A stretch of 64,000 nt of DNA, taken from the IMG/VR virus record IMGVR_UViG_3300042154_000876, positions 11,584 to 75,583 of that record; one strand, given 5' to 3'. The DNA comes from a virus. Both the position numbers and the translations under genes were made by a program. The notes beneath the pieces are model-generated. The model had not been told where the DNA came from. It saw only the letters and a program-made list of their open reading frames with translations, and did not search any database. Below, piece after piece: positions 3,001 to 51,079 of the stretch; position 1 is the first letter of the stretch; each line of letters starts with the position of its first letter.

Positions 3001-3931
3001 TGCGACCGAGGCAAAGAAGTACGTTGTATCGCGAGGATTCGGTGCTGCCAACGCCGAGACCTTTAAGATTGGATACTCTTCGAAGAACTGGGCTGACCTA
3101 TATCAGCACCTACGTCGCAAGGGATTCTCTGAAGAAGAGATCTTAGCCTCGGGACTAGTCAACAGAAGCGAAAACAACGGACGACTATTTGATGCCTTGC
3201 GCAACAGACTAGTCTTCCCCGTTAGCAACGACAAGGGCCAAGTGGTTGGTTTTGTTGGACGCTCGATTGACCCTGAAGAGCCAATCCGCTACATGAGAAC
3301 CAAGGGTACCCCGATCTTCCAGAAGTCGAGCACCTTGTTTGGTCTAGATCAGGCTAGGGATGCAATCGCTGAGTCAGGCGAGATGGTTGTTGTTGAAGGT
3401 CAGTTTGACGTTCTAGCAATGCACGCTGCCGGCATCAAGAATGCTATTGCTGCCTCGGGAACCGCATTCGGTGAGGGCCACATGGACCTATTCAACCAGA
3501 TTGTTGGTGACAAGGAAAACAAGAGCGTAGTGTTTGCTTTCGACCCAGACGAAGCCGGAATTAAAGCAGCTGGAAAAGCGTACATGATGTTGACCCAGTC
3601 CTACTTTGATGTCGCGCCTTACATTGTCTCTGATGAATCTGGACTAGACCCTTCTGACATTTACTCAAAGGATAACGAAAACGGTCTTAAGACTCTGATG
3701 GATAACAAGCGCCCAATGGCTGAAGTTCTGATCGAAAGACTTCTGTCTAGTGGTAGAGAGCTTAGCGATATCCGCGACGCTATCATTGCAATCCTGATGA
3801 ATGTCCACGACACTAACCTACAGACCCAGCTAGTTCAGCGCTTCGGCCCTCAGCTTGGTGGAGACATGGGCGAGCTGTTTGCAGAGGTTAGAATGTATGA
3901 TCCTAAGCGGAACGCTAAATACAACATCTAG
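2..3931 (+). CDS. C-terminal part of a giant multidomain protein: UvrD/SF1A-like helicase + DnaG-type primase core (5' end outside window)
   Basis: Frame open to window edge; SF1 motifs ILYAVFNK, LDEAQD, GDNNQAIFGFRGA, LTKSYR, HTSKGLE, YVVTTRPR (Walker A upstream); DnaG motifs SRG, RLVFP..GFVGR, VEGQFDV, FDPDEAG, DPSD. Confidence 0.9.
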   Translation, partial: AEAIMSLFPQMRILYAVFNKENQMEALEKMPDNTEARTSDSISVMANANNKLRDKMDALSKQDEPHNMPVNFFREADIADLFGVKDVTLSTGKDVPRERVAGIASAALRAWILSDSMKIDASTIDAISSQLSEKEMPQTAEDYRPFIRLVQMMWDDVISDHDQDRRQLVVNFNHLFKNWALTRPDLTEVDGSGKSIHGLKNVPDFLFLDEAQDINPVFRKVIEDQYTLHKNGIVMIAVGDNNQAIFGFRGAEDALNIVKRDLTLPLTKSYRTGQTVLDAAANKLLAMLGESLRLQGKDGNGTKLVDNMSRERIDLALSRGTAAILKEAIVVEEMFEGGRIATTLNFKQELLNMLKAMTYLQRVDYVNYANAEARKNDPNAAPILPPKRPTIPGALLGLNWETMYELLSEGKGDQSIQQIWNVIRGHASKNKIKIGPAMSDLLNNIVPNLRVVNHEFHLPAQLDPIGSLGGGLDYEITKDKIIIRDDPSAGFNARKTAISGVYNNRKVLEDYGFWNPSKDQATGRYGGFEWEINLYDDGRDQLQDLVKGLRGEDAMFRIMTGHTSKGLEADNVKILDDWLDLTPFLPGGDAEKQNELLELFRSRGPDFDLMEEIRLMYVVTTRPRTELDLGGLKWLNNHSPEQLKAAVDEIQKRLAMGFGAVEEGVEVKSPEEIEAIKNRPTGEDLSGLPPRTDWEAEKAAKEENSWRLKNTEERTKEEIGEIPRDGNLPLKPRSRDNAELAKLKEERRELVSKIATAKSKGKEPSKATEQKLADVNQKISDIENADSVEEFSSKKRPSSPNYQDEFDRKVDGLKAAIATAKDILNLVPEDRTGDFKGYADTNIEETIAGLQEDLNALLDNPDMLERDDEEDYRIAERLLAKLNADKMAKLDMGDLMDARRIVKNKSDITGTDQSFVYGTTPPVYLNRVMLDALEKMKDHLYRKLKHDEKLDFAPYVSDQVEESSSPVENISPEMEKKLYNIVEEAAKFYSDRLMNFNDPGATEAKKYVVSRGFGAANAETFKIGYSSKNWADLYQHLRRKGFSEEEILASGLVNRSENNGRLFDALRNRLVFPVSNDKGQVVGFVGRSIDPEEPIRYMRTKGTPIFQKSSTLFGLDQARDAIAESGEMVVVEGQFDVLAMHAAGIKNAIAASGTAFGEGHMDLFNQIVGDKENKSVVFAFDPDEAGIKAAGKAYMMLTQSYFDVAPYIVSDESGLDPSDIYSKDNENGLKTLMDNKRPMAEVLIERLLSSGRELSDIRDAIIAILMNVHDTNLQTQLVQRFGPQLGGDMGELFAEVRMYDPKRNAKYNI

Positions 3932-3945
3932 CCCCTCAGGTTTAT

Positions 3946-4023
3946 TGGTATACTTGTAAAAGACTAATCAATCGCGATAGTTACCCCGTTAATTTGACAA
4001 CTGCTAATTGACGGGGTATTATC
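3946..4023 (+). promoter_or_regulatory. SigA-type promoter(s) overlapped by an inverted repeat
   Basis: TTGACA (3994-3999)-17 bp-TATTAT (4017-4022); extended -10 TGGTATACT (3946-3954); arms TACCCCGTTAATT / AATTGACGGGGTA. Confidence 0.65.
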
Positions 4024-4051
4024 AAGGTGTTACGTTTCTATAAGGACCAGT

Positions 4052-4315
4052 ATGAAAATCTTTGTTGACACCCCCGAGGGCGGAAGCCTCGTTGAGATTG
4101 AAGTCTCCACACTAGAAGATGACAGGCTAAACACGCTTGCCGCATCTGGATCTAAAGAAGCGCGCGACGAGGTTAAAAAGCGTACCGGTATGGATCCATA
4201 TAAGCCTGTTTCTGAGCACACACCCGAAGACGTCGAATACTACATGGAGTGGTTAAAAAATAACGACTCTGAAAAATACAATAAAATTGTAGGTAGCGAT
4301 AAGGACGTTGAGTAG
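4052..4315 (+). CDS. Small acidic hypothetical protein (paralog A)
   Basis: AAGGA RBS upstream; aligns with next ORF. Confidence 0.8.
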   Translation: MKIFVDTPEGGSLVEIEVSTLEDDRLNTLAASGSKEARDEVKKRTGMDPYKPVSEHTPEDVEYYMEWLKNNDSEKYNKIVGSDKDVE

Positions 4316-4604
4316 GACTATGGAAGACAACTACGAAGAATACCAAGTAGACATGCATGTCATCACTGCTAGTGGTGGCAAGGATTTGAAGTTCCAGCTT
4401 AAGGACCTTACCGACGAGGAGCTTAATCAGCTCTATGAAGAGACTGGACTAGAAGAAGCCCGCCTCGCTTACCGCGAGCGTACCGGTGATGATCCAGCTA
4501 AAAACCTATGGATCTATGGACCAGAAGACTTTGCGTGGTTCCAGGACTGGTGTGACCGCAACCCAGAAAAGTTTGAGAAGTTGCGAGCCCAGTATGACGT
4601 TTAG
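4308..4604 (+). CDS. Small acidic hypothetical protein (paralog B); alternative ATG at 4320
   Basis: Shares LN.L..G..EAR....RTG.DP.K....PED....W...N.EK pattern with 4052-4315. Confidence 0.8.
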   Translation: MSRTMEDNYEEYQVDMHVITASGGKDLKFQLKDLTDEELNQLYEETGLEEARLAYRERTGDDPAKNLWIYGPEDFAWFQDWCDRNPEKFEKLRAQYDV

Positions 4605-7600
4605 CCCACTATTTTTCGAAGACCCAGAAGAGCCTATCGTTGCCGCTGCTCTAAAGAACGGCAAGGAGTGGGGCTACTGGGCTGACATGCAGCTACGCGA
4701 TCCAGGAGGAGAGCGCGGCGGTTGGTTCATCGAGATGGGTGGCCTTAACCTATTCAATGGTATGGGCAAGGACGGAAAAGTCCGCGCCTACAAGGGTAAG
4801 TACATCGGCCCTTCTCCGCTTGGTCAAGGCTACGGTCGATTCCTAGTTGAAGGCGGAGACGGCGTTGACCCCGGTATCTACCACGTAAACGTATCCAACA
4901 TCGACTCCGTTAAGGGAGTTCTTAGCGAAGAATATCTACGCAGCCTGGGTCGTGACGTTCCTGCTCAAAAAGAAGGTATCGTTGACCTATCCAAGACTCG
5001 CATTGACCCGATAACTGAGCAAGACCTACAAGACGCCAACATTGAGCCGGACAAGCCTAAGAACCTCAAGAAAGCTGCCAACGACCGCGGTCAATCAGCT
5101 AAAAAACTAAAGGACCTAAAAGACGGCGACATCCTCTACGACGAGGGCAACAAGCGATTTGGCGAGGTCGTTTCTACCGTAGATAAAGATGGAAACTTTA
5201 GCCCGTGGGTTAAATGGGAAGACAATCAGATTTCTCAGATTCCTAACGCTGACCCAGAAACCGAGACCGCCGTTTGGGCAGCTCCAGCTCCTGAAGTTGA
5301 TGAATCGGCAGCCCCTAAAAAGACCGTAAAGGGTAGAGACCTCAAGGTCGGAGACGTAATCCGCGCTTGGGACGAAAACCGCACTATTACGGCGATTGAG
5401 CCAGGGCGTGGGGGGGAGCGTTACTTTATTTTTGACACTCCTGATGAAGGAGAAGACGGTCCTGATGGAAAGTTTATCAACATCAATGAGGACGTCGAGC
5501 TTGGCCGAGAAGAGGCTCCAGTCGCCCCAGCCGCCCCTGTTGCTGCCGAAAAAACAAAATCTAACAAAGTTTCTGCCTCTGAAGTTAAAAAAGGTGACTC
5601 TGTTGTAATCAACGGAGAGACCTATACGGTTTCTAAAAAATCTAACAAAAAAGCTGATGGAGTGGTTATTGGCCACAAGATTGAGTTTAGGGCCGAAGAC
5701 GGCAGCACTTTTGAAGAAGAGTTCCTTTCAGACGACACTCTAGATATTCCTGCTGCAGAGACAGCAACAAAAGAAGAGAAGAAGACTCCGCGTGGGGTTC
5801 TCACTAGTTTTGTGAAAAACATGCAGCCGGGGGATGTTCTTATTGCTGGTAAAGACGATAAGCGTCAAGAGGTGCTTTTTGTATCTGCTGAACCTATACC
5901 TCCAGTAGACAATAATGATATTCGCAAACGTTATAATATTACAGTTCAACGTGCCGACGGTGGGCTTGAAACTATTGCAGTTGATGCTACGAATGGTATC
6001 CCGCAGTTGGCTGAAACTAATGCCAAAGGTAAAACTGAAAAGGTAAACCGTAAGGACCAACTTAAAGTAGTTCCATCCGCTCCTGCCACTACAACTACTA
6101 AAACCACTCGGACCACCACAAAAACTGCAGGTGACGAGGCCGGAACCACTACAACTACCACCCCGAGGGTTCGAGCACCTGAAGTAATCCCAACAACTCC
6201 GATGTCCACCAATCCAGGTGACACCGGAGAAGTTGTTAGGGGCGTCAACTACGAAATAATGCCTGACGGAAGAATCAAGTTTTCTCGCGGGCGTCTTAAA
6301 AAGGGTAGCCGGTCGTATGACTTAATTACAAAGGTTTTACCAGGCGAGATAACTAGATCTGGTAACGGAAAAGCTTTCGCATTTTTTGAAAAGCCAGAGG
6401 GTGGGGATTACGGAAACTGGTTTGTAAGATTCGAACCGATCAAAGATTCTAAAAAAGATCTGGCTAAGCAGTTTCTCGACAGCCTCCGTGCCGGCATGGC
6501 TAAGGAAAAGGTAGAGTCTTCTGAGGAGACCGGCTCATCCTTCTCTGGGGCTAAGAACACCAAGGGCAGCATCACTGATGCCGCGTCCTATGAGGTCGAC
6601 GAGAACGGTACTGTAAAGATTTCTGGCCTAACCGAAGAACAGGTTGACCTTGTTGTTCAGGCTATGTATACGGTTCAGGGAACCACACCACTTGACCGCC
6701 CTGGAAGCGTTTCAACCAAGGTTGACTCTGACAAAGATGAAGACCGCGCCGCTGTTCTAAAGGCTGTTAGTGATGCTCTTGGTGGAACTCCAGCTGCTAC
6801 AACTACCACTACCACTACTACCCCGGACTTTGACTCCTTACCCAAGACAAAAGCTGACCCGGAGGCGGCTCGTAAGGCCGGGTTTACAGTAGACAATGTA
6901 AAGCCAGTAGATATTCAAGTTGGAGACTACATTATCAGTCCAGTGGGGTACTGGACAAAGGTTGTTGGAGAGCCTAGTATAATTCCTGATCCAAGGAACC
7001 CAGGCGAGATTGCGTGGGCTATTCCTACTGAAAACTACAAGGGAGAGAGGTTTACTCAAGACGGTTTGGGAGACCTGAACCTAAGGATTGATCGAGTTCG
7101 TGGACCTAACCACGTAGATACGCCAGAAACTGCAGACGAGGCTTTTGATAAAGAGTCCGCTCCATTCCCTATGGACACCCTGAGGGATTTAAAAGAAGGC
7201 ATCTATGCCAAAGTCGACGGCATGTGGAAAAAGATTACCAAGGTCGGTAAGCCTCAGATAGATCCTAGTGTCGATACTGAATCCGTTGTAATAGAGTTTG
7301 AAGATGGGACAAAGAAAAGGGTAGACGAGCGAGACGGCCTTACTTTAGTCCGTAAGGTCCCTGAAGGTGAAGCCACGTCCACAGCGACAACCACCACTGA
7401 AGGTCTGACTACCGATCAAAGGCTGGCTAAGCTTTTATTCTTAGTAAAGGGTAGCGGTTCCGAGGACGCGGCTTGGAATGCATCCATAATGGGCGATGCT
7501 AGAAGATCTCTTGAAGCTGCTGGAATTGATGAAAATGATTTCCTAGACTATGCAGAAAAGTCCGGGGCCTCAGATCTGCGTCAACCTGATCTAGATAAGC

Positions 7601-10600
7601 TCATTGAGAAGTATAAAGCTGATAAGGGCTCTACCACAACCACAGCCACTACCACTGAAGAGTCCGACAAGCCTACCGACGAGCAGCGCAAAACTATTGA
7701 CGACCTTATCGCTCAGATTGGCGATGAAACCAACTTTACGTCTAAGATTGTCACGGCGATGTTGGATAGCCTTACTAAAGAATCTGCAGACATGGCCATC
7801 GACATGCTTAAGGCTGCGATAGCAAACACTACAGCCCCTACCACCACAACCGCTCCTGCTCAGTCGGTATTCACACCTGGCCAGATTGATAGCGTTAACC
7901 GCCGTATAAACCTACTAACTCCGGAGCAGCAGGCTAAGGTTAAAGAGGCTATGGAGTCCGCCACCCCTAAAACCGCTAAAGACATTATGTCTAAGATTAT
8001 CAACACCCTAGATAACGCTGAAATCATTAGCCGTATCCGTAAGGGAATGCCGGTTGATGACATTTTAGCCAGGCGCAAGACCGACACCGTAGGAGCTAAC
8101 CTACTATTCGATCTAGACCGCTCTCCTAAGGAGATCGCTCAGAGACTTGCCACCTACAAACCAACCGTTAACCTAGACGGTACTCCGATTGCGGACGCTC
8201 AGCAAACTACCACTACAGTTTCAGGAGATGACACTAAGTCAGTATCTTCTCTAATATCTGACGTAATAGATTCTCTTGCTAAGGATCTGCAGACTAAGTT
8301 TGGAGCCCTAAAGTATAGATACAGCTCCAAGACTCCACAGAACGCCGAGCAGGCAGAAAAAGATCACGAAATCTACCTAGAGTACTTGTCTACGGTTGTC
8401 CCTGCCGTTATGCAGGCCCTTAAAGAGCGTCTCGACAGTCAAACAGCCGCTGGCAACCCTGACGCACAGAAAAACTATGACGACGCCGTAAGTAAGCTGA
8501 AGCAAGAACTTTGGGGACAAAACAGGGGAGCTGTCTACACCAGCGAAGCCGAAAAGCTTGTAGGCAGCGATCGAACAAAAGAGATGTCTGATGAAGCCAA
8601 CAAGGCTCTTAATGATCTACTAGCTGGAGTCAAAAAACCCGAGAAGCAGGTAACTACTGAAACTACCACTAAAGACACTTTCGGAAAGATCGGCACCTCC
8701 GGTAACCTAACTGGAAACGTTGACTACTCGATTGATAAGTTCGGCCAGATCGCTCTGACCAACGCTCCTGAAGACTTTGACGCTAGAATGGCGGAGAGTA
8801 GGGGCCTCATTATTGTTACTGACAATGGTAAAAAGTCCATTGTCCTAACCAAAAACAACGATGAAAATCGAGCCGCTGCCCTTAATCTCATAAAGGAGCG
8901 TCTAGAAGGACCGGCTCCGGTCACTACAAAGGTTGAAACACAGACTGAAGTAGCTCAAGATGTGGTAACCGGTCAAGAGCGACCAGAAGGTGGCGTCTCA
9001 AAGAAGATTTCTGAGCTGAACGTCGGAGACCGTTTATACGATGAAGAGACCGAATCCATGGCCACCGTTGTCGGTGTCTATGAGGACCCAGACCGTGCTG
9101 GCCGCATCGTACTTACTATCCGATTTGACGACGGTCGAGAGGACTCTGCTTCATATAAAAAGTCGTACGTCGTTGAGGCCTATCCTTCGCCAGAAGCACC
9201 AGCCGCAACTACCACCACCGCTGAAGATGTGGTCGGTGGCGAGGATGCGGACACCTCTAAGACAGAGGCCGAAGTCGTTGAAGACTCTCAGGTTATAGTA
9301 GAGCAGGGTGAGTCTACCACCGCTGAGCCAGGTTCTACTGTTTTAGAAGAGCCAGATGCCGAGGCCGTTGAGCCTGTAGAACCTAAGCGTAAGCCTAGGG
9401 GGCCTCGTAAGCCTAGAAAAGTAAACCTCTCTGATGTATCAGATGAAGAGCGCGAAGCATTCATTCGTATTTTTGATGCCCTAGAAAACTTCAACCGAGT
9501 TGAGGAAGAATATGGCGGTAAGAAATATGATTCTAAGTGGTATATCGACGAGAAAGACCGCAAGTTCGATAACAAAGATGTAGAGGAGCTTGCTTCTCAG
9601 AATACCAAGGGTATTGGTGAAGACCTAGGTATTCAGTTGATGGACTCCACTACGGACGCCTATGAGCCAGGGGCATTCTCGAGTACTCGTCAGCCGACTC
9701 CAGGAGCATTTACCGGCCGAGTTGCGCGCATGGTTGAAGGCAAGACCAAAGCAGAGACTCGCAATATTCTTAAGGGCCTAAAGGTTTCGTGGTTTGATAC
9801 TGAAACTACAGGAATCTCTAACTTTGATGGTGACCCTACAAATAATGATGTGGTCCAGGTAGGTATTGTAAACACTCAGAATGGTGAGGTCCTAGAGCGC
9901 CTAAACATCTACATCAACCCTGGTGTAGAGGATGGGGTCCGACTAGGCAAGTGGGCCACAAACAACTTAGTCAAAGATGCAGTTGGCGAGGACGGTCAGC
10001 CTATTCTGGGACCAGACGGCAAGCCAACAACCGAACCAATCACCAACGAGTGGTTATCGGAGCAGATGTCTATTGCTGACGCTGTTCAGCAGATCATGGA
10101 CTTCATGGGTCGCGATCCGATTCTTGGCGGTCAGAACGTTCCGTTTGACCTTCAGGTTCTCCAGCGTATGTTGGATAAGGCTGGGGTTAGGGGTTACCGC
10201 ATCGGTGGAACCATTGACTCTAAGGACCTATCTGAAGAGTTCCTACCTAAGTACAACGAGTACGAAGGAACTGACGGACCTAAAAGGTTTGATAAAGAGC
10301 GTAACAAGTTTGTGCCTACCTCTAGCCTAGGCTACGTAGCCGAGTTCCTGGGATTTGGTACTACGCGTTGGCACTCAGCCGATGCCGATGCCGAAGACGC
10401 TTGGAAACTTGCTTCTGCAACTATGGACCGTGCAGCGTCCGAGGACCCAACGGGAACTAGCGATTTGATGAACCAAAGCGCCATGAGAAGTCGTTATACA
10501 GAACGTATGGCTAAGTTCCTAAAGACGATTGACCCGCGCAACCCGTCTACGGCTAAACAACACGGTGCAGTTCGTAAAGAAGGCTTTGGAGAATACCTAG

Positions 10601-13600
10601 ACGATCTAGGGCTTTCCCGTGACCACCAAAATGCACTGTTCGACCAGATTAAGCAAATGACTCGTGGTGAAGCCGCCAGGTTTATCAGCACTTTCATCGA
10701 AGCCAATCCGCTACCTAAGCCTAGCGCTAAGCCTTCCATTCAAAATAGAGTACTAGATCTGAATCAGGTCACTAAAAACATCAAGAACCTTGAAAGACTT
10801 AAGTCTCAACCGCTTCCTTCCGCTCTTAGGGATATGGGCACCGTCCCGACCGATACTGAAGAAAAAATACAACACTTTAACAGGGAATTCTCTGACTTCC
10901 TAAAGAAAAAGTACCCGGACCTAACTCTTGGTGAAATCTGGTCATCTAGAAACAGCAATATCGATGTCGAGAAAGATTTTAATTACTTCTCTGATTTATA
11001 TCAAAAAACTATGTCTCTGCCCGATAGTAAGGTTTTTGGTATTGGTAACGCCACTATAACCGCAAAAGACGGCATCCTAAGCAAGCGAGACTTGGCAATA
11101 GTGTCTAATGCCTTAGAAGTACTACAAGAGAGATTCTCTCTAGGCGAGACCCCTATTGATGTCCGCTATATGCCTCAAGAAGAATTAGACCGTCTCGCTG
11201 AAAAGAAGAATGTAACAGGGTCTGCATACATCGATGAAGACGGTGCGCACATAATTATTTCTGAGCGGACTCTTGGTGTCTATGAGAAAGACGGTAGGAG
11301 CGGTAAGACTGGGTCAGTGTCCGCTCACTTGGCTACTGTGATCCATGAGTACGGTCACCTAGTTCATGCACTACTACTAGGGTCTAATTTCACAGAAAAA
11401 GAAAAAGCAGACCTGGCTAAAGAGTTCCAACGTAGATTCAAAAAAACTAGGGTCACTGATTACGGCGAAACTAGTACTGCTGAAAAGTTTGCCGAACTGT
11501 TCTATGACATGGAATACAGCAGAATCGAAGGAACTGAACCTGCAGTTCCAGAGTTTAGCGAGTTTATGGAGTCCATTAAGGGTCGGAAGGCTGCTATTAA
11601 GCCTTCCCTGCTTAACAGGATGGGGATCAAGAAGCCTCAGGCTCGACAAATGCCCCCTGAGAACACCAAGCCAGAGTTTGATGGAGCCACCAAGCTTTCT
11701 GGTGCTAACCTAGCCGCGTTTGAGGGATCCTCAGACAGCCTGCGCGGTAGTGACCAAGAGGCTGGCTACATCCCGGACCCTAGTGATCAAAAAGCTTTTA
11801 ATGAGTTTAGACTTCAGATAAGTCTTAACCCTGGCGATCTAGTGTCTGAGGCGCAAGCGCGTATTAGATTTAAGAAGGAAATCGAGAAGGCTAAAAAAGA
11901 CGCCCGACGCTACGAAGTACTTAAAGTTGAAGGCACAAACTCCTACATCCGCTACAAGAACGGAGACGCTTCTCCAGAAGCCATCCAGCAGACGATTGAC
12001 CAGCTGCGTGACCTGGAAGACTTCAACGTTGCTGGCGGCATTTCTCAGGTTGTAACCTTAGCCAAGCGCGAAACCTTCTCTGTTGGAAGACTATTTGCCA
12101 CAACGCAGGGGACCGAAGAGGAGATCCATGGATACTCTCTTCTAGATTCGGATAAGGGTATTGGTCACATTGTTGTTGACCCTGACTTAGTCTCCGAGTC
12201 CCCTGGCTCTGTACCTGGAATCGCTGTAGGACAATACTACGCTAATGGTGGCGTTGACGCTCAGAATATGTTGAAACGCACCTTGGTGCACGAGTATGCG
12301 CACAACTGGGCTAAAGTGATTCTAGGACACCGCCAACAAGACAGCGCAAGATTTGATGAGTTTGTTCGCAGTGTAGTTCAGAGAATCCAAACTTCGGGTG
12401 GGAGAAGTGTCCACCCAATCTCGGAGATTGCCGAGGGTGGAGACGGTGAAAGCTTCGCTGAGTTCTTTACGGCCGCCTTCTTCCAGATTGTTGAAGGCCG
12501 CATGCTCCCTACTAAGGGATCTCCGCTTGATCAGTTTATTCAGTTCTTTGCTAAATATGCTGGAGCCAACGTTGAGCCAATCATTAAGAACATCAGCCCT
12601 ATCGTTCAGGTTGAAGAGTCGTCTTCTGGCGGACAACGACTAAAGTTCCCTAAGAACCATGAGGGAGCTGGGTCAGAGAATGTCTACCTAGAGTACAACC
12701 GACGCAGAGAGTTCTACCGAAATGGGCTAGATCCTTACGGACGCCCACTAAGCGATGCCCGTGCGGCAATGATTCGCGAATACAGCAGCTACATCGATAA
12801 ACTAGAGTCTGCGTACCAGTCCACCATGCGCGCTGAAGACTTCGACGTTATGACTTCAGCTATGGCGGCCCTAAAACGAGTCTATGATTCGATGTTCTTT
12901 GCCTACGCTAAGAATAACTCCAGATTCAATGTAGACACTATTGGTGAGAACATTGAAGCTAATGAACAAAGCTTCCGTAGCTGGACAGCACCTACTTCCC
13001 CTCTATTCTTACCTGAATCTGAGGGACCTTTCAAGAATGAGATAACCACCGGACGCTATACAGACGTCGACGGTATTTCCTATCCGCTTGTATACATCTC
13101 TTCGACTAAGGCAGATGGTCGCACCTATACAGCTACAGTTGCTCTTGACCCAGAGAACACCGACTTTGACCTTGCCACTGCCAATATGGACACCCTAATT
13201 GAGGCATCTGTTGGAAAGATGATAACCATATCGGACAAAGAAAAGACTAGCCAGATTCTTGACTACATCTCGGTTGACGGTGACCTACGTCACAGGGGCA
13301 TAGCCACCTCTCTTCTATCCTTCACTAGAAGCAACACAACTAAGAAGGTTTTGCACAAGGGTAAGTCTGCCCCGGATGTTTCAGCTTGGGCCCAGTCGGT
13401 AGATAGTTCTGAAAAGTCCTACGAATCCGCTCCTCGTGCGTTTGACGATGCTTCTCACGTTGCTCGACACAACCGCAACGCTATCAACCTAATCTCTGAT
13501 CGCGAGCCGCCTCAGGAGATCGACACGTCTTCAGAGACCTTAGAGGCCGAGGCGCTACACTATGCGGGGGAAAACTACGGAAACTTCTATCACCCTAACT

Positions 13601-16600
13601 TGCAGGACTACATGTCTAAGCAGGGTGGCGGACTTGGTGTCTACAACTCTACAGTTGGTTATGTCTCAGCTGAGACTCTCAGTTCGATGCGCGGCAATGA
13701 GCCTAAAGATCCGGACAGCGTGGCTCGCAAGGTTGAAGACCTACAGGACGGCGACGGATTCGACCAACCGGTAAGCGTCGTCTATAACCCTCGCACCGGT
13801 GAAGCTTATGTAGCCGACGGTAACCACCGCGTCCAGGCTTCGCTAGACGCTGGCGTTGCTTATGTACCTACAAGAGTCTTTATCATGGATGTTCCTCCTG
13901 CACAGGAGAACCCACAGATTAAGAAGTTGGAACGCGATGGCGGTCTACCTCTACCTGAGGGCGCAGATGAAGTTCACCCATACTTTGTCTTCAATAAAGA
14001 AGATCTAGTTAATGGAAAAGACCTATCTGACCCTAGCGTTGTTGAAGAAATGGCTTCTAACGTTGTTGTTTGGTCTGGTCGCGGTAAGGCTTCCGAGCGC
14101 AACCGCTCCGGAAGGTATGACCCAGACCCTAACAACATCTTTGAGCAGCTTGCCCCAGGCGAATACGTTATGGACAAGAAGACCAAAAAGATTTATCAGG
14201 TATACAGCCAAGACTTTACTACCGAAGTAGGCCAAGACGGTGTAGAAAGAGCCGTATTCACCGGGAAGATTGTTGTCCGAGAGTTTGAAGGCAACTTAGA
14301 TAACCTATCTAGAGTAAGAATCTCGACGCAGTTTGGCGATAACAATATCCGCTACGCTCAGGGTGGACAATCCTCTGCCGACGATTCATATAATGACGCT
14401 CGCTCATATATTGACGAGATTCGCGACCCAGCGGACTTTGAGAATGTTACTGACTCGTTTATAAAGCTCAGTGACCAGCCTATCCTTATCAGCGATACGA
14501 TGTACGTTGTTCAGACCGAGACCGGTATCAAGGGTCGAATCTCTAAGTTTGTCTCTCCTGGAGTAGTTAGACTTGATGTTCTAAAGGGATATAACGAGGA
14601 CGGCGAACCTCTCTATGATCAGATAGAGTCCCCGATAACCCAGCTTCTACCTATCCAGAACCAGCAGCAGGTCCCTAATGGACAGCCTGCTATGGAGCAT
14701 GCCCCTGATATGCAAATATCTAACTCTACCTGGGACTCGATCAACACCTTGTCCTCTACCCTGTTGAAGTGGGGCTACCTATCAGAAGATAAGTACAAGG
14801 CTATTCAGACCCTAGTTCACGGTAAGTTTATTACCCAAAGCGGTGCTCTGGACCTTGAGCGTTCGCTCAGAAACCACGACGTAGTTAGACGAGCAAAGAT
14901 TCGTGGCGTCGCAGTGAAGTCACCTGCCACTGGAGAACCTGTTGCACAGGCGCCTGTACAGCAAGCTGCCCCGTCTGCCCCTGCCGCGCCTTCAGTTGGC
15001 CAAGGCGAGGCCGGAGGTCGCTCATTTGAGCAGCTCCTAGAAATGAAGCGTGCTCGTAAGAAGGCAGATGCCGGGCTATCTGTAGAAGAGTTTGCATCTC
15101 CTGTCACAAAGATTAAGGTAACTAAGAACCCTCCTACCCAAAGCCAGATTCTAGAAGTAGAGCGTCTTCTTTCTGAAGACGGTGCGGTAACCCCGCAGCG
15201 TGCATTTGATATTCTATCTTCACTACCTACTCTAAATGCAGAAGCCACCGAAGCTGTACTAGAAGAGATCCGAGCAGATGTTCTCAACAAGAGGATTTCT
15301 AAGGATGAAAGCATCACTGGTCTTGTAGTTCCTAAGGGCTTTAATAGATCCAAAATCTCTGGATACCAGCCAGCCGTTGAGGAATCATCTACCGGCTTTG
15401 AGATCGATAGAGATGCGGAAGAGCCTAATGAAGACGGAGAGGTTAGCCCAGGAGCGAAGCCAGAAGAAGAAGGTCCTAAGATGTCGTTCAATGCTCAACA
15501 GAAGTCAGCTATTGACTCTGTAGTTAGCAGTGAAGGCGGCCTATTCTTTATCACTGGTGGTGCTGGTACTGGTAAGACCACTATTAAGAAGGAAATCGAC
15601 AAGCGCGAGAAGGCCAAAAATAGAAGGACTATGACCATTGCCCCTACGGGTAAGGCAGCCCTTCAGGCAGAGGGAGCTACCATCCACTCTACGTTCAAGA
15701 TTCCAGTAGGCCCTTTAACCGATTTTAGCCCGTCCGAGACTTACAACAAGAATATGGGTACTGCCAAGGGCCGTAAATCTATGGCTGCTTTGCGCACGGC
15801 AGACACCATCTTCATTGATGAAGTTTCTATGGTTCGAGCAGATCTGATGGATGCTATGGACAGGATGCTTAGGGTTGTCAAGGGAAACATGTCTGAGCCT
15901 TTTGGTGGAGCTAAGATTGTTATGCTTGGAGACTTGGCTCAGCTTCCTCCAGTAGGTATTGACTCTAGCCCTGAAAACCAGGGACCTCGCCAGCGATTCC
16001 AAGAGACTTATGCTGATGACTACTTCCTAAGTGCTAACTCATGGGCATCTTCGGCGTTTGAGGTTCACAACTTGACTGAGTCTATGCGTCAAAGCGCAGA
16101 GGATGATGCCTGGTTCGAGCAGTTCCTAAGGGAGAGGGCTCGATTCGCTGAGGTGACTCAGGAAGACATGGAGAAGCTGTGGGAGATTAGCGAAAAAAAC
16201 CGCAAGCGTGATGCTGAAGAGGGTGTCACATCCGAGCCTATCCACCTGGTGTCTACAAATGCTGCCGCAGACGAGATCAACAAGAAAAAGTTTGCTGAAC
16301 TTGAGGGTGAAGCAGTTAAATTTACTGCTACCATTGACGCTCCAGAAGGCTCTGACATTAAGCCGTTTGTTCGAAATGGCGGTCTACCTAAAGAGGAAAT
16401 GGAATACAAGATCGGTGAGCCGGTAATGTTTATCAAGAACGATGACGCACAGCAGCGCAAATCTGCTGGAGGCAACCTTCCGAACGAGTCCAGATGGGTA
16501 AACGGAAGTCAGGGCGTAATCACAAGATTTGAATATGCTGAAGGCGAAGATGGCCAGACCCCTATTGCTATCTATGTAAAGATTGGCGACAAGGAGCACC

Positions 16601-17370
16601 GAGTAGTTCCTGCCACATGGGAAGATGTAGAATACGGCGTATCTACCAAGATTGAAGAAGAGAAGAACATCGTTGAGGGACCTACTCAAGAAGTTTTGTC
16701 TACCTATACTCAGATTCCTTTGATGCCAGGATGGGCTATGACTACCCACAAGTCTCAGGGAGCCACTATGGACTCAGCTGTGGTCGACTATTCGATTAAG
16801 TACTCTGATAATGGAGATATTCTCACTCAAAATAGCCCTTTTGCTGCTGGACAGGTCTATGTAGCACTTAGCCGACTACGTAGCTCGAATGGTCTCTACT
16901 TGACTAGGAAGCTAAATAAAAATGACTTTATTAGAATCGAACGTAGCGTTACCGATTTCTTCAAGAATGTTGATGCTCAGACAGCCGCTAACCAGGTCTC
17001 CGAAAGTTCCGCTCCAAAGAAGTTTGACCCGCTAAAAGGATACATTTCTGAAGTAGATCTTGCTTCAGCCCTAGACAGCGGGGAACTCACCGGACCAGCT
17101 GGCCAGAACCTTACGGACTACCAGTCCACCGCTATCAAGAACAAACTCCGTCTGATGCGTGAAAATCCTAATAGTGCTGATCGTTATAGAGAAGAAATTG
17201 CTAAGCTAATGAACTCTTGGTTTGGTGTCGAGGAGCCTGGAGAAGAGATCCCTGCTGTAGCTGCCCCCATTGAGATCCGCATGGACAACTTCCGCGACCC
17301 GTCGGAACGTCAGGCCACAATAGACCTACTTACTAAGAGTGGTATTCCCTACACTTTGAAGTACGATTAA
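4594..17370 (+). CDS. Giant polyvalent protein (~4258 aa): SH3/KOW-like repeats, DEDDh exonuclease, two zincin peptidases, GNAT, ParB-like, Pif1/RecD helicase
   Basis: FDTETTG/QNVPFD/HSADAD; HEYGH and HEYAH each with downstream E..AE.F; LRHRGIATSLL; DGNHR; GGAGTGKT, DEVSM, GDLAQLPPV, HKSQG, YVALSR. ATG 4594 preferred because it overlaps the upstream stop. Confidence 0.9.
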   Translation: MTFSPLFFEDPEEPIVAAALKNGKEWGYWADMQLRDPGGERGGWFIEMGGLNLFNGMGKDGKVRAYKGKYIGPSPLGQGYGRFLVEGGDGVDPGIYHVNVSNIDSVKGVLSEEYLRSLGRDVPAQKEGIVDLSKTRIDPITEQDLQDANIEPDKPKNLKKAANDRGQSAKKLKDLKDGDILYDEGNKRFGEVVSTVDKDGNFSPWVKWEDNQISQIPNADPETETAVWAAPAPEVDESAAPKKTVKGRDLKVGDVIRAWDENRTITAIEPGRGGERYFIFDTPDEGEDGPDGKFININEDVELGREEAPVAPAAPVAAEKTKSNKVSASEVKKGDSVVINGETYTVSKKSNKKADGVVIGHKIEFRAEDGSTFEEEFLSDDTLDIPAAETATKEEKKTPRGVLTSFVKNMQPGDVLIAGKDDKRQEVLFVSAEPIPPVDNNDIRKRYNITVQRADGGLETIAVDATNGIPQLAETNAKGKTEKVNRKDQLKVVPSAPATTTTKTTRTTTKTAGDEAGTTTTTTPRVRAPEVIPTTPMSTNPGDTGEVVRGVNYEIMPDGRIKFSRGRLKKGSRSYDLITKVLPGEITRSGNGKAFAFFEKPEGGDYGNWFVRFEPIKDSKKDLAKQFLDSLRAGMAKEKVESSEETGSSFSGAKNTKGSITDAASYEVDENGTVKISGLTEEQVDLVVQAMYTVQGTTPLDRPGSVSTKVDSDKDEDRAAVLKAVSDALGGTPAATTTTTTTTPDFDSLPKTKADPEAARKAGFTVDNVKPVDIQVGDYIISPVGYWTKVVGEPSIIPDPRNPGEIAWAIPTENYKGERFTQDGLGDLNLRIDRVRGPNHVDTPETADEAFDKESAPFPMDTLRDLKEGIYAKVDGMWKKITKVGKPQIDPSVDTESVVIEFEDGTKKRVDERDGLTLVRKVPEGEATSTATTTTEGLTTDQRLAKLLFLVKGSGSEDAAWNASIMGDARRSLEAAGIDENDFLDYAEKSGASDLRQPDLDKLIEKYKADKGSTTTTATTTEESDKPTDEQRKTIDDLIAQIGDETNFTSKIVTAMLDSLTKESADMAIDMLKAAIANTTAPTTTTAPAQSVFTPGQIDSVNRRINLLTPEQQAKVKEAMESATPKTAKDIMSKIINTLDNAEIISRIRKGMPVDDILARRKTDTVGANLLFDLDRSPKEIAQRLATYKPTVNLDGTPIADAQQTTTTVSGDDTKSVSSLISDVIDSLAKDLQTKFGALKYRYSSKTPQNAEQAEKDHEIYLEYLSTVVPAVMQALKERLDSQTAAGNPDAQKNYDDAVSKLKQELWGQNRGAVYTSEAEKLVGSDRTKEMSDEANKALNDLLAGVKKPEKQVTTETTTKDTFGKIGTSGNLTGNVDYSIDKFGQIALTNAPEDFDARMAESRGLIIVTDNGKKSIVLTKNNDENRAAALNLIKERLEGPAPVTTKVETQTEVAQDVVTGQERPEGGVSKKISELNVGDRLYDEETESMATVVGVYEDPDRAGRIVLTIRFDDGREDSASYKKSYVVEAYPSPEAPAATTTTAEDVVGGEDADTSKTEAEVVEDSQVIVEQGESTTAEPGSTVLEEPDAEAVEPVEPKRKPRGPRKPRKVNLSDVSDEEREAFIRIFDALENFNRVEEEYGGKKYDSKWYIDEKDRKFDNKDVEELASQNTKGIGEDLGIQLMDSTTDAYEPGAFSSTRQPTPGAFTGRVARMVEGKTKAETRNILKGLKVSWFDTETTGISNFDGDPTNNDVVQVGIVNTQNGEVLERLNIYINPGVEDGVRLGKWATNNLVKDAVGEDGQPILGPDGKPTTEPITNEWLSEQMSIADAVQQIMDFMGRDPILGGQNVPFDLQVLQRMLDKAGVRGYRIGGTIDSKDLSEEFLPKYNEYEGTDGPKRFDKERNKFVPTSSLGYVAEFLGFGTTRWHSADADAEDAWKLASATMDRAASEDPTGTSDLMNQSAMRSRYTERMAKFLKTIDPRNPSTAKQHGAVRKEGFGEYLDDLGLSRDHQNALFDQIKQMTRGEAARFISTFIEANPLPKPSAKPSIQNRVLDLNQVTKNIKNLERLKSQPLPSALRDMGTVPTDTEEKIQHFNREFSDFLKKKYPDLTLGEIWSSRNSNIDVEKDFNYFSDLYQKTMSLPDSKVFGIGNATITAKDGILSKRDLAIVSNALEVLQERFSLGETPIDVRYMPQEELDRLAEKKNVTGSAYIDEDGAHIIISERTLGVYEKDGRSGKTGSVSAHLATVIHEYGHLVHALLLGSNFTEKEKADLAKEFQRRFKKTRVTDYGETSTAEKFAELFYDMEYSRIEGTEPAVPEFSEFMESIKGRKAAIKPSLLNRMGIKKPQARQMPPENTKPEFDGATKLSGANLAAFEGSSDSLRGSDQEAGYIPDPSDQKAFNEFRLQISLNPGDLVSEAQARIRFKKEIEKAKKDARRYEVLKVEGTNSYIRYKNGDASPEAIQQTIDQLRDLEDFNVAGGISQVVTLAKRETFSVGRLFATTQGTEEEIHGYSLLDSDKGIGHIVVDPDLVSESPGSVPGIAVGQYYANGGVDAQNMLKRTLVHEYAHNWAKVILGHRQQDSARFDEFVRSVVQRIQTSGGRSVHPISEIAEGGDGESFAEFFTAAFFQIVEGRMLPTKGSPLDQFIQFFAKYAGANVEPIIKNISPIVQVEESSSGGQRLKFPKNHEGAGSENVYLEYNRRREFYRNGLDPYGRPLSDARAAMIREYSSYIDKLESAYQSTMRAEDFDVMTSAMAALKRVYDSMFFAYAKNNSRFNVDTIGENIEANEQSFRSWTAPTSPLFLPESEGPFKNEITTGRYTDVDGISYPLVYISSTKADGRTYTATVALDPENTDFDLATANMDTLIEASVGKMITISDKEKTSQILDYISVDGDLRHRGIATSLLSFTRSNTTKKVLHKGKSAPDVSAWAQSVDSSEKSYESAPRAFDDASHVARHNRNAINLISDREPPQEIDTSSETLEAEALHYAGENYGNFYHPNLQDYMSKQGGGLGVYNSTVGYVSAETLSSMRGNEPKDPDSVARKVEDLQDGDGFDQPVSVVYNPRTGEAYVADGNHRVQASLDAGVAYVPTRVFIMDVPPAQENPQIKKLERDGGLPLPEGADEVHPYFVFNKEDLVNGKDLSDPSVVEEMASNVVVWSGRGKASERNRSGRYDPDPNNIFEQLAPGEYVMDKKTKKIYQVYSQDFTTEVGQDGVERAVFTGKIVVREFEGNLDNLSRVRISTQFGDNNIRYAQGGQSSADDSYNDARSYIDEIRDPADFENVTDSFIKLSDQPILISDTMYVVQTETGIKGRISKFVSPGVVRLDVLKGYNEDGEPLYDQIESPITQLLPIQNQQQVPNGQPAMEHAPDMQISNSTWDSINTLSSTLLKWGYLSEDKYKAIQTLVHGKFITQSGALDLERSLRNHDVVRRAKIRGVAVKSPATGEPVAQAPVQQAAPSAPAAPSVGQGEAGGRSFEQLLEMKRARKKADAGLSVEEFASPVTKIKVTKNPPTQSQILEVERLLSEDGAVTPQRAFDILSSLPTLNAEATEAVLEEIRADVLNKRISKDESITGLVVPKGFNRSKISGYQPAVEESSTGFEIDRDAEEPNEDGEVSPGAKPEEEGPKMSFNAQQKSAIDSVVSSEGGLFFITGGAGTGKTTIKKEIDKREKAKNRRTMTIAPTGKAALQAEGATIHSTFKIPVGPLTDFSPSETYNKNMGTAKGRKSMAALRTADTIFIDEVSMVRADLMDAMDRMLRVVKGNMSEPFGGAKIVMLGDLAQLPPVGIDSSPENQGPRQRFQETYADDYFLSANSWASSAFEVHNLTESMRQSAEDDAWFEQFLRERARFAEVTQEDMEKLWEISEKNRKRDAEEGVTSEPIHLVSTNAAADEINKKKFAELEGEAVKFTATIDAPEGSDIKPFVRNGGLPKEEMEYKIGEPVMFIKNDDAQQRKSAGGNLPNESRWVNGSQGVITRFEYAEGEDGQTPIAIYVKIGDKEHRVVPATWEDVEYGVSTKIEEEKNIVEGPTQEVLSTYTQIPLMPGWAMTTHKSQGATMDSAVVDYSIKYSDNGDILTQNSPFAAGQVYVALSRLRSSNGLYLTRKLNKNDFIRIERSVTDFFKNVDAQTAANQVSESSAPKKFDPLKGYISEVDLASALDSGELTGPAGQNLTDYQSTAIKNKLRLMRENPNSADRYREEIAKLMNSWFGVEEPGEEIPAVAAPIEIRMDNFRDPSERQATIDLLTKSGIPYTLKYD

Positions 17371-17463: not shown

Positions 17464-20400
17464 ATGAGTGATTCAGAAAAAGACCCTATGTATTTGGGAA
17501 ACTCTGGATCCCTTGCGCTCTTTGCGTTAGGTGAGAAAGCCGTAGTAATTGATACTACCCACAACTTAGTTGTAAAATCTGGCACTGTTTCTGAACTCTC
17601 CGCATCTAACGACTGGGACGAGAGTTCTTCAGAGCAAAGTGCCGTAAGCCTGGAACTAGCTAGCGCATCCTTGATTGACCTAGACATTAAAGTTGTTACA
17701 GCGGGTGGATCCAGTAGGATGTACACCATTCCTAAGGGTGCAAAAGCTGAAGCTGAAAAAGCACTTGAATGGCGAAAAGAAGAAAAGCGTGGCGGCACTC
17801 CCGTTGGTTTGAATACTGCTCGCACGCTTGCACGCGGTGGGCAGATCGGAATCGAGAAGGTTCGCCACATTGCCAAGTATTTCCCTCGTCACGAAGTTGA
17901 CAAAAAGGGTAAAGGCTGGAGACCAGGCGAGGATAACTTCCCTAGCAACGGCCGTATCGCATGGGCACTTTGGGGTGGGGACGTAGCATGGCGCTGGGCT
18001 CAGGCCATTGTTGAGCGTGAAGACAAGAAGCCTAGAACTGCTTCAGTAGCCGGGCCAGACCTAGAGTCTTTCAATAAAGCTATGAATTTGGACTATGCCT
18101 CAGCACCAGAGTTCCTAGTTCGTGTTCGTATGGATGGTTCTGGAATAGACCGACTATATAAAGTTGACCTAGACGGCTCAATCTATGTTTGGGATGACGG
18201 CTGCTGGGATGACCTGGGCAGTATTCAGGGCGATGTCTATGTATATGACAAAGCACTAGACGACCCATATGACCTAGTTGAAAAAGCTCACGTTCCTATT
18301 GACCCGGACTCAGCCATTATTGTTGCTGCGAAACAACACCAGAGCCCTGATCGCTACATCTCTGTTGCAGAGATTGACGCTGAAGAAGCCGCTCTAACTA
18401 TGTTTGCTGCAAACGAACTTGACTGGAAGTTCATTGACTACACGATGACCGCTGCTGGCGTTAATCCAACCGACAACATCTATAGCCCAGAAGAGCGCTC
18501 TCAGAATGCAACCGCTCAGAGACGCAACACAGGTGGTAGGTTTGCTCCTCAGGGTAGCAAGTCCGGCGCTTCCGCTCAGCCTAATGCTGTTGGAAGTCAG
18601 GGCGGACAGCTTGAAGACTCTCTACCTCTCACCGACTTTGACCAGCCTCTAGATGTCTCTGGAATCCTAGGTGAGCCACGCACTCCTATTGATCAACCTT
18701 ACGCTCAGCTGGACGGAACCCTGCCAGCAATGACAAAGGACGATCTACATGACGTTCTTTACAACTGGCCAGCTTGGGTCCAGGAGCAGCGTTCATCTTT
18801 TAAGCCTCTTGCTGCTGCAGGCTCTGAAGAAGAAAAACCTGAAGAAACAGAAGAGCCTGAAGACGAAGAAGTATATAACCACCCGCTGTTAAAGCGTTGG
18901 CGTTTAAACACAAAGCGTCGTAAGGATGACCAGCCTAATAGTGATTGGGCTAGTCCGATCGTGGCCGCGCCTGTCGCATCGAAATCAGAAGCAGTAAAGT
19001 CAAAGAAACTTACTCCAGAAACTTCAGATGTAAAGCCGCTATATTTTGCGGTTGTTGCAGAAGATGACCCGCGTGCTGTATTGGACCTGATCTCGATTGT
19101 ACCGGCCAGTTCTACTTCTAACTCGCCTATGGCATACAAGCGTGATAAGGGCAAGTGGGTTCGCGATGAGGCTACAATCAATGACCTAAAATCTGCCACT
19201 CCTCCTCCAGTAATCCCTCTAGACAGCAAGACTCTAAACGAAGTTCTTCTTCAGGTAGACGATGCTACTATGACTGCGTCCGGCGTCTTTAGTGTTGACC
19301 ACCTACTCATGGTTTTGTGGGGGCCTCAGCAGGAAATCATTGATACCTACGGCGATGCGTTCTTTGAGGTTGTAGACAAAAACAACGATTTTGACGCCAA
19401 TCTCAAAGCAGTTTTTTCTGTAGTAGCTGCAGGCGGTTTGGACCGTAACAGGGGGCAAGCGGAGAAGCTTCGCAAGTATTGGACCGTCGGTAAGGGTGCT
19501 GCAAAGATCCGTTGGGGGATGGGCGGCGACTGGTCTCGCTGCGTTAAGAACCTATCGAAATACATGGGCCCTCGCTCAAAGGGATACTGTGCCCTCCGCC
19601 ACAAGGAGATGAATGGTGTTTGGACTGGAGACAAACGTCACCGTCAAGTCTATGGTCGCAAGAAGGGTGGGTCACGCGGCCTATTCAGCACCGAGTACAT
19701 TAACTCTACCGCTCAGACTATTGACAATGCTCTAATTGCAGCCAAGGCCGATGATGCTCGCGAGCGTTTCGGTATTGTGGCTACCGGGCTACCTGAGAAT
19801 GGTTCTAAGTTCTACATCCCACTACTCATCCCTGAGGGTATGGAGTCCGGCGATGGTCGAAAGTTTAAGAAGGGCTCTATCACATGGAGAGATCTTCCTC
19901 TACCGCTTTTGTGGCAGATTAAAACTGCTGATGGACATGATGGCTCCGTTGTTGTTGGCCGTATTGACAGCATTGAGCGCGTGGAAGATGGTTTAGGGAA
20001 TGCCTATGGCATGTTCGACACCGGAGCGTATGGTCGAGAGGCAGAACGCCTAGTTCGTAACGGATTTATCCGTGGTATTTCAGCTGATATGGATCAGTTT
20101 GAAGCAACAGAAGAAAAAGAAGACGTAAGCCCAGAAAACTCTGAAAAAGATGATAAGCACGTAGGAAAGAAGAAGATTACTATAAATAAAGCACGCGTAA
20201 TGGCTGCTACAATAGTACCTAAGCCCGCTTTCCAAGAATGCTCTATCACACTAATAGAGGGTGGCTTACCGACTACCCAGGAGGACACTATGATTCCTGA
20301 TGGAATCTATGTAGACGACGTAGACGCTGCAGATGCCGAGGCACTAGTTGCCTGCGGTATGGTTGCCGGCGCTATCCCTGTCGTCCCACCACGCGAGTGG

Positions 20401-42975: not shown

Positions 42976-43397
42976 TAACGAATCCTCTTCTCTAGCTTCT
43001 CTGGGGTGTAGTGAGTTCCGTCAAGCTTAGGTTCTTTTTCGTCTGTTGATTTGAAGATGATGTCTCCGGATCGAATAGCCACCACGATACCCTTGCGGCC
43101 GTTGTGCAGGTGGCCAACTTCTGTCATATCAAAGGCATTGTGAGCAACTCGAACTACGTCGCCAACAACTATCTGACCGCGCCGGGCCGGTACCCAGACC
43201 TCGTCTTTGTTTACTTCGATTAGGGAGTGGCCTAAACCGACCTTAGATAGGATATCTAGAACGTCTTTAGATTGGGCTGGATCCATCTCAATCTCTTCCC
43301 AGGTTTTAAGCATCTTTAGTACGGCTTTTCCTGTACCGACTCGGATCTTTGCGTCTGCAAACTGCTCCTTGACCCATTCGTAGTTGATTTTACGCAT
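42975..43397 (-). CDS. Hypothetical protein with C-terminal SH3/KOW-like region
   Basis: IVVGDVVRV..NGRKGIVVAIR; coupled start/stop. Confidence 0.7.
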   Translation of the reverse strand: MRKINYEWVKEQFADAKIRVGTGKAVLKMLKTWEEIEMDPAQSKDVLDILSKVGLGHSLIEVNKDEVWVPARRGQIVVGDVVRVAHNAFDMTEVGHLHNGRKGIVVAIRSGDIIFKSTDEKEPKLDGTHYTPEKLEKRIR

Positions 43398-44419: not shown

Positions 44420-44437
44420 ATTTTTCTTTCTTGAGTA

Positions 44438-44465
44438 AGGGGGCACCGTTTTCACGATGCCCCCT
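44438..44465 (-). terminator. Hairpin downstream of SSB gene
   Basis: AGGGGGCATCG-loop-CGGTGCCCCCT on minus strand. Confidence 0.55.
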
Positions 44466-44484
44466 ATTTGCTTCCGGTCTGGGG

Positions 44485-45066: not shown

Positions 45067-45099
45067 AGCTGTTTTTTATTTTTCCTATTCTAGAGGGGG

Positions 45100-45873: not shown

Positions 45874-45875
45874 GC

Positions 45876-46841: not shown

Positions 46842-46843
46842 AT

Positions 46844-48655: not shown

Positions 48656-48733
48656 GTTGTTGTTCCTTTCGTCTCTAAATAGATACTATCACATTTTAGG
48701 AAATATTATTAGCAAAAAGCTATAGTATCTCGA

Positions 48734-51015: not shown

Positions 51016-51079
51016 ATCTAATCCTTTTGTCGTTTGTCTTTGTAATGGTAACACAACTAGTGTGCTAAAGCAATGCTAT

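Follow-up and report, generated by a model that had tools for sequence, protein, structure and literature searches.

Polyvalent proteins, defined in 2017 by Iyer, Burroughs, Anand, de Souza and Aravind (J Bacteriol, PMC5512222), join disparate enzymes in one chain, contain one or more zincins alongside ParB-superfamily and GNAT domains, are encoded among virion genes, and were proposed to process themselves and to be delivered with the DNA. These features are found in, or proposed below for, giant 2 (P0001), a protein of 4,258 residues encoded on a 64,000-nucleotide stretch of viral DNA (the window), which comprises bases 11584–75583 of the 75.6-kb IMG/VR contig IMGVR_UViG_3300042154_000876 (L018 numbering refers to the whole contig). 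The best reading of its sequence is that the giant 2 family follows polyvalent-protein logic as a variant, with a tag domain and putative cut sites. An earlier note made from the sequence alone (the original prediction) had called giant 2 a polyvalent protein, and this is the right class, as judged by its disparate enzymes and zincins, its setting among virion genes, and the presence of ArdC-N and MPTase-PolyVal domains in other carriers of its N-proximal domain.

Several features set giant 2 apart from the proteins covered by the consulted part of PMC5512222. It matches none of the Pfam models of that study, and the putative anchor of giant 2 and of its upstream partner, giant 1, is a new β-barrel domain, not a MuF domain or portal fusion. 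A Pif1 helicase and a DEDDh exonuclease are core parts of giant 2, and the giant family includes proteins with DnaG/Toprim primase and ArdC-N, domains that PMC5512222 assigns only to the versions of conjugative elements and, in its wording, "never" to those of phages. Lineage-specific motifs at the joints between domains are explicit in the giants, and none was found described in the consulted text of PMC5512222. The same source notes that zincins of polyvalent proteins resemble lethal factor only distantly, the kind of relationship that the giant 2 zincins show as well.

Phage P1 offers a further comparison, its DarB and DdrB being large multi-enzyme proteins (helicase, methylase, ParB, zincin) that are carried in the head, with DdrB processed before packaging (PMC5512222). 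Giant 2 differs from them in having only generic helicase similarity, twice the size and about eight units, another host clade and another head-targeting system. Packaging of the coliphage N4 virion RNA polymerase is a precedent for giant cargo (PMC5512222). This 3,500-residue enzyme likewise has a lethal-factor-like zincin and is encoded by a late gene; it is packaged in few copies and ejected with the DNA, a route that we infer for giant 2. The N4 protein is a transcription enzyme and stays uncut, whereas giant 2 has DNA helicase and nuclease functions and apparent cut sites. T4 gp21 and phiKZ gp175 are prohead proteases that cleave internal proteins of the head behind a Glu (x-x-E). The T4 internal proteins IPI–III and the phiKZ inner body match the arrangement proposed for the giants in having a short recurring cleavage motif, an N-terminal capsid-targeting element and DNA-coupled ejection; they share the prohead-protease motif with capsid and scaffold, whereas the capsid and protease proteins of the phage studied here use another motif.

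Giant 2 is encoded by an uninterrupted open frame running from 4486 to 17370, of even GC content along its length, in which the ATG at 4594 gives 4,258 residues. This ATG overlaps the stop of a small open reading frame (ORF) at 4320–4604 (ATGACGTTTAG), as in translationally coupled genes. Searching 5.8 billion proteins with residues 1650–4258 gave 12 full-length metagenomic homologues (P0003–P0014) from separate samples, of 4,127–5,336 residues and with 29–49% identity over 73–100% of the query. Among IMG/VR loci (L-numbers), the closest relative, L001, encodes a protein 79% identical to giant 2 with the same neighbour genes; L002, L003 and L033 encode ~30% relatives, followed by a ~1,500-residue protease protein and then a ~680-residue capsid protein; L004 is more distant; and in L006 and L007 the N-terminal part is encoded as a separate gene. 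The order of giant, ~1,500-residue protease and capsid is kept in L001, L002, L003 and L033, so that comparison across contigs, a step proposed with the original prediction, recovers the same architecture and position in independent proteins and loci. An assembly or gene-calling artefact fusing separate genes, misassembly being named there as one refuting possibility, is ruled out by the 12 independent homologues, the conserved synteny and the uniform composition, and its probability is practically nil. Conservation among the homologues is high at residues 1–240 and 1680–4258 and low between, in agreement with the two zones originally described. The supposition that the combination is undescribed holds in part: the class has been known since 2017 (PMC5512222), and the exact giant 2 architecture has no record in the cultured-phage collection or the papers searched. 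Queried with the window DNA and with residues 1500–4258, that collection gave helicase matches only, and a scan of metagenome contigs gave generic exonucleases only.

Recurring in giant 2 and giant 1 is a short motif, [VIL][ED]E-x-[SA][SAT], present in 12 copies, six in each giant, compared with 0.53 in shuffled sequences (maximum 4 in 500 shuffles). There are no copies in the 15,508 residues of the other proteins of this phage, nor in its portal or Dps fusion. All copies in giant 2 lie between recognised domains and in the low-confidence ends of both structure models; those of giant 1 precede its exonuclease, UvrD helicase and primase, with two falling inside the window (2363–2380 and 2879–2896). 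The relatives carry other motifs at the same joints: [QML][LF]M[AKQ][FY] in L002, L003 and P0008 (8 versus 0.09 expected), which is present in both L002 giants and absent from the L002 protease and capsid; PSQNRE in both giants of L004 (L004:1-21726; 10 versus 0.004 expected); SEE[RMK] in P0007 (8 versus 0.28 expected); and [VI]D[RK][MRK] in P0009–P0014. An unbiased screen of 3-mers, simple repeats set aside, returned VEE for this phage, QNR for L004 and SEE for P0007 as the top words. Joint 1 is a hot spot for insertions: P0014 has a DnaG zinc finger and primase there, P0008 an ADP-ribosyltransferase (PF03496), and P0004 and P0012 a cassette of ~750 residues.

Because this motif recurs between domains, the reading shifts from one huge enzyme to a polyprotein. 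Sites that co-evolve with their protease would be expected to keep their position and to differ in sequence between lineages, as these motifs do. The recurring peptides could instead be docking or linker elements that bind a shared partner within an intact 470-kDa machine, an idea to which the N4 virion RNA polymerase lends some weight, being packaged unprocessed despite its zincin (PMC5512222). Such an arrangement appears quite improbable, given that the motifs are confined to inter-domain linkers, keep their position while switching sequence, and are common to both giants, a pattern usually seen where the proteases of viral polyproteins co-evolve with their sites.

Which enzyme would do the cutting is suggested by the head proteins and by giants that have no zincin. 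The protease protein encoded downstream of giant 2 carries a motif of its own, h-[TVLAI]-A-[ASGCT]-[GAP] (11 versus 0.9 expected), as does the capsid protein (4 versus 0.6 expected), and this motif is conserved in L002 and in gp84 and gp85 of the cultured Microbacterium phage Pumpernickel. The head proteins have the appearance of a second group of processed polyproteins, with a code of their own (h-[TV]-A-[AS]-G). No comparable recurring motif was found in giants that have no HExxH (L008, L010, L005, the lake phage DSL-LC01 and Pumpernickel gp82), whereas zincin-bearing giants carry a joint motif, and this is true even of L004, which has zincins of other families. The HExxH motifs of the L004 giants are of other zincin types, one of them resembling the ArdC-type HELxHxTG. 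Since the head proteins lack the VEE motif and the HExxH-free giants lack a joint motif, the zincins built into giant 2 are favoured as the cutter in this small sample, acting on giant 1 in trans as well.

Packaged giants might alternatively be cut in the head by the prohead serine protease, with the zincins serving as effectors against host proteins. The motifs of several lineages end in Glu (VEE, SEE and QNRE), resembling the x-x-E sites of T4 and phiKZ, and where the shared domain begins, the giants have a conserved P-h-h-A similar to the motif found in the protease protein itself. One conserved copy of the protease-type motif, PIVAAA, stands in giant 2 just before this domain, a weak hint that the prohead protease may also see giant 2. 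Three observations make the prohead protease a distinctly unlikely main cutter: VEE is missing from the protease, the capsid, the portal and the Dps fusion, where h-[TV]-A-[AS]-G is used instead; the motifs of other lineages have no Glu (MFMxF and VDRM); and giants without zincins have no recurring motif.

At the N terminus of giant 2 is a β-barrel domain that is shared with giant 1. A BLAST hint (residues 13–113 of giant 2 resembling residues 170–271 of giant 1) is borne out by hmmsearch, in which profiles of the domain match giant 1 of the same phage with independent E-values (i-E) of 6e-10 to 8e-50 and the upstream giants of L002 and L004 with values of 1e-17 to 1.5e-49. The AlphaFold2 model of the domain (m0f6ef8be584a, pLDDT 74) is similar to small barrels (VIA Z of 5.7); there was no match in Pfam, only noise in a profile search of the Protein Data Bank, and no usable match in the ESM Atlas. 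Among 1.84 billion representative sequences, its profile finds 559 clusters, and for 381 the match has E ≤ 1e-10. The carriers are mostly 900–6,000 residues long, with the domain N-terminal or near residue 160–320. Fifteen diverse carriers contain UvrD helicases (8), exonucleases (5), ArdC-N (3), MPTase-PolyVal (3), DnaG primases (2), Zeta toxins (2), Pif1 (1) and NUDIX (1), and the presence of ArdC-N, MPTase-PolyVal, Zeta toxin and the like ties the group to polyvalent proteins.

The shared domain also heads Pumpernickel gp82 (2,235 residues, i-E of 2.5e-38), encoded two genes after the portal, and in DSL-LC01 it occurs both in a 3,289-residue protein (i-E of 5e-34) and in a 466-residue portal-adjacent protein. 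All of these are annotated as hypothetical, and PMC10611076 does not discuss them. Pumpernickel gp82 and the 3,289-residue protein share with the giants the N-proximal domain and the place after the portal, and differ from them in lacking recognisable enzyme domains, HExxH and a recurring joint motif. A large protein with this domain at the same genomic place in both phages supports a position in the head module. The barrel is a candidate head-targeting tag.

Giant 2 is a real polyvalent polyprotein, conserved among relatives, and belongs to an uncultured lake siphophage of actinobacteria. On balance, the evidence tips towards its being tagged, cut and delivered from the head: its joints carry short recurring peptides, which related phages exchange for others, so that the protein is probably divided into pieces and packaged. 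The shared barrel would direct both giants into the assembling head, where the recurring motifs would serve as cleavage sites, cut most likely by the giant 2 zincins in cis and in trans. Cutting would give about eight fragments: the tag; the variable zone; the exonuclease with the zincins; the GNAT–ParB pair; the β domain; the helical module; Pif1; and the C-terminal domain. These pieces would be ejected from the capsid together with the DNA and, at the very start of infection, work on the phage genome as it enters or on the DNA and defences of the host. More tentatively, the arrangement may amount to a general tag-and-cut code, in which the barrel, across its 559 clusters, addresses cargo to the prohead, zincins cut lineage-specific joints that evolve together with the protease, and exonucleases, UvrD, Pif1 and DnaG are injected alongside the genome as a kit for DNA replication and repair.

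A number of points weigh against delivery from the head. Cleavage and packaging are both steps that we infer from sequence, and released fragments of 100–1,400 residues could travel down the tail only in unfolded form. The Phage_Mu_F model, representing the MuF anchor, has no match at E ≤ 1 in either giant or the homologues, and a portal-fusion domain is absent from giant 2. The Pfam model MPTase-PolyVal (PF18818) and the LPD models likewise have no match at E ≤ 1 in giant 2 and eight homologues. The motif of the protease and capsid proteins differs from the VEE of the giants; the association of zincins with joint motifs is drawn from about ten lineages; and the regular expressions for the motifs were written after the data had been seen. 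Shorter stand-alone genes for the GNAT–ParB fragment were sought and only pieces cut by contig ends were found, and split genes therefore give no confirmation of the joints. Ahead of the small ORFs and giant 2 is a promoter match, which would fit separate and possibly early expression.

This near-consensus promoter keeps alive the alternative that giant 2 is a cytoplasmic replication and repair polyprotein, perhaps expressed early, cut or left whole and never packaged, its location being an accident. The domain content resembles replication machinery, relatives fuse a DnaG primase into the same protein, and the missing MuF or portal-fusion domain fits as well. We nevertheless regard such a role as unlikely. 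The phage encodes a complete replication module in another region and on the opposite strand; phages whose giants have only the N-proximal domain in common still place them between portal and protease; and zincin, GNAT, ParB, ADP-ribosyltransferase, Zeta toxin and ArdC-N domains are typical cargo of conflict proteins that are delivered (PMC5512222), and are not typical of replisomes.

Searches with giant 2 as a single sequence recognise two domains only, the DEDDh 3′–5′ exonuclease and the Pif1/Dda-type helicase, both of which had been proposed originally with intact catalytic motifs. The exonuclease (residues ~1700–2008) scores 35.4 bits with PF00929 (cut-off of 24) and 8e-18 with phrog_192, and D1735, E1737, D1852, H1927 and D1932 are invariant among homologues. 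The helicase (residues 3625–4132) matches PF05970 (4e-31; 108.8 bits, cut-off of 25.9) and phrog_325 (8e-75), with invariant GxGKT and DExS (Walker A and B) motifs.

The remaining domains emerge from profile and structure prediction, the approach suggested with the original prediction, which reached zincin 1 by profile and the ParB/sulfiredoxin fold by AlphaFold2. A profile of residues 2040–3165 matches the catalytic core of anthrax lethal factor (PDB 2l0r, E of 3.5e-4) across HEYGH...EKFAE, and the two zincins are paralogous to each other (hhalign 99%, E of 3e-18), so that both predicted zincins stand. HEYGH and HEYAH each precede E-x-FAE, and the two His, the Glu and the downstream Glu are conserved in all homologues (H2566, E2567, H2570 and E2623 in zincin 2). 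Searched directly in the phage genome, the MPTase-PolyVal model found no match. In P0009–P0014 a third HEYGH zincin follows the helicase, within the C-terminal ~300 residues; the window protein does not have it.

Behind the zincins is a probable GNAT domain. The modelled segment (residues 2773–2935) has VIA Z of 5.8–6.2 with five GNATs (2wpw, Hat1 and PAT among them), values within the range of chance fold matches; its RHRGIATSLL fits the R-x-x-G-x-A motif, with R2899 invariant; and Acetyltransf_13 matches three homologues weakly (E of 0.021). The Pfam GNAT model Acetyltransf_1 (PF00583) has no match in the phage genome, and the GNAT assignment, which has its motif and a middling fold match (Z of ~6), is weakly supported. 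Better placed is the ParB-like domain, whose assignment at the fold level is sound, based on the model and the invariant DGNH(R) loop. The AlphaFold2 model of residues 2680–3165, for which 13 sequences were used, has a mean pLDDT of 65, rising to 82–90 over the ParB-like part, for which the top Foldseek matches are sulfiredoxins and ParB (probability 1.0, E of 0.01, TM of 0.56–0.66 on the target; VIA Z of 6.1 and rmsd of 2.6 over 84/89 residues with sulfiredoxin 6ky4). D3075, G3076, N3077 and H3078 are invariant, the following Arg being His in one clade. The predicted ParB-like domain is recovered at the fold level, and Pfam ParB_N has no match in giant 2, its homologues or the phage genome. 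The β-rich segment that follows (residues 3155–3375) had no usable match in the ESM Atlas. Three helical modules sharing a T..Q....LT pattern had been described as repeats; the pattern is visible by eye, and the modules have no profile–profile similarity to one another (hhalign, all <50%), so this claim is not upheld.

The N-terminal ~1,650 residues do contain small modules and Thr-rich linkers, as predicted. The modules are modelled as barrels resembling EF-P domain I, KOW and SH3, the first small barrel is one of about six β modules in the variable zone, and the modules are partly paralogous (hhalign 76% for A and E, 94% for B and C, 85% for C and D). Whole modules of this zone have been gained or lost even relative to the 79%-identical L001. 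The coordinates of all features are collected in Table 1.

Table 1 Features of giant 2 and its surroundings, in window coordinates.
Feature	Position	Strand	Basis or remark
Giant 1, 3′ part	14–3931	+	Full gene 3,163 residues (P0015), starting 5.56 kb before the window
Sigma-70-like promoter match, TTGACA-17-TATTAT	3994–4022	+	Best in 20 kb, 11/12
Two short acidic ORFs, paralogous to each other, of 87 and 94 residues	4052–4315, 4320–4604	+	No Pfam match
Giant 2 (P0001), 4,258-residue polyvalent polyprotein	4594–17370	+	Open frame; 12 full-length homologues; L001
N-proximal SH3/Tudor/KOW-like β-barrel with RDxxGxFxEMGG motif (residues ~14–125)	4633–4968	+	Profile, AlphaFold2
First small KOW/EF-P-domain-I-like barrel (residues 165–232)	5086–5289	+	VIA Z 6.8, EF-P domain I
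Joint motif 1, VDESAA (residues 235–240)	5296–5313	+	Alignment
Variable zone (residues 241–1662): β modules, Y-x-I modules, helical segments, poly-Thr linkers	5314–9579	+	Low occupancy and identity
Joint motif 2, VEELAS (residues 1663–1668)	9580–9597	+	Alignment
DEDDh 3′–5′ exonuclease	9691–10443	+	PF00929, phrog_192, invariant catalytic residues
Zincin 1, HEYGH at 11344–11358 (residue 2251), then EKFAE	11131–11598	+	Lethal-factor match
Zincin 2, HEYAH at 12289–12303 (residue 2566), then ESFAE	12061–12573	+	hhalign to zincin 1
Joint motif 3, VEESSS (residues 2673–2678)	12610–12627	+	Alignment
GNAT-like domain (residues ~2780–2940), probable; three-helix bundle before it	12931–13413	+	VIA Z 5.8–6.2
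ParB/sulfiredoxin-fold domain with DGNHR (residue 3075)	13648–13914	+	Foldseek, VIA, invariant residues
Joint motif 4, VEEMAS (residues 3150–3155)	14041–14058	+	Alignment
Conserved β-rich domain (residues 3165–3365)	14086–14688	+	High conservation
Joint motif 5, VEEFAS (residues 3497–3502)	15082–15099	+	Alignment
Joint motif 6, VEESST (residues 3595–3600)	15376–15393	+	Alignment
Pif1/Dda-type SF1B helicase	15466–16989	+	PF05970, phrog_325
Variant joint, VSESSA (residues 4135–4140)	16996–17013	+	Relatives' own motif at the aligned position
Conserved C-terminal domain	17017–17367	+	Conservation
1,500-residue polyprotein containing prohead protease	17464–21966	+	phrog_18402, phrog_859; h-[TV]-A-[AS]-G recurs in it
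Major capsid protein	22098–24137	+	phrog_777, 7e-82
Separate replication module	43397–58941	mostly −	PolA, SNF2-type helicase, Sak4-like annealing protein

The upstream partner giant, the shared N-proximal domain and the recurring inter-domain motif, absent from the original prediction, are first seen here. Self-processing and injection of polyvalent proteins were predicted in 2017, and the sites at which processing occurs have seldom been identified; joint motifs that are conserved in position and switched between lineages make the self-processing prediction directly testable. The N-proximal domain provides a handle for head-cargo proteins in hundreds of uncultured phages and is also present in cultured Microbacterium phages, whose virions are easily accessible to proteomics. 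If the cargo is injected, a siphophage would deliver helicases, nucleases and primase with its DNA, changing the view of the first minutes of infection and of defence evasion in abundant freshwater actinobacteria. The tag and cut sites could also serve for loading foreign proteins into capsids.

Preceding giant 2 are, in order, a small-terminase-like gene, the portal (phrog_776), a Dps/ferritin–DUF5824 fusion, giant 1 (DEDDh exonuclease, UvrD helicase and DnaG/Toprim primase) and the two small ORFs. Following it are the 1,500-residue protease protein, the capsid and the tail genes, and the predicted location immediately before protease and capsid is thus seen. In its capsid protein the phage shares 67% identity with DSL-LC01 and ~55% with cultured Microbacterium phages, which fits an actinobacterial host (PMC10611076). 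Besides the proteins listed in Table 1, the replication module encodes two exonucleases and an 874-residue primase-polymerase/helicase. The Dps/ferritin–DUF5824 fusion (690 residues; PF00210, 2.5e-13) lies directly after the portal at L018:3948-6020, and in DSL-LC01 this place is taken by a DUF5824 protein. Further downstream, a 1,326-residue tail protein (35460–39440) matches the FCCH domain of ubiquitin E1 (PF16190, 3.4e-10).

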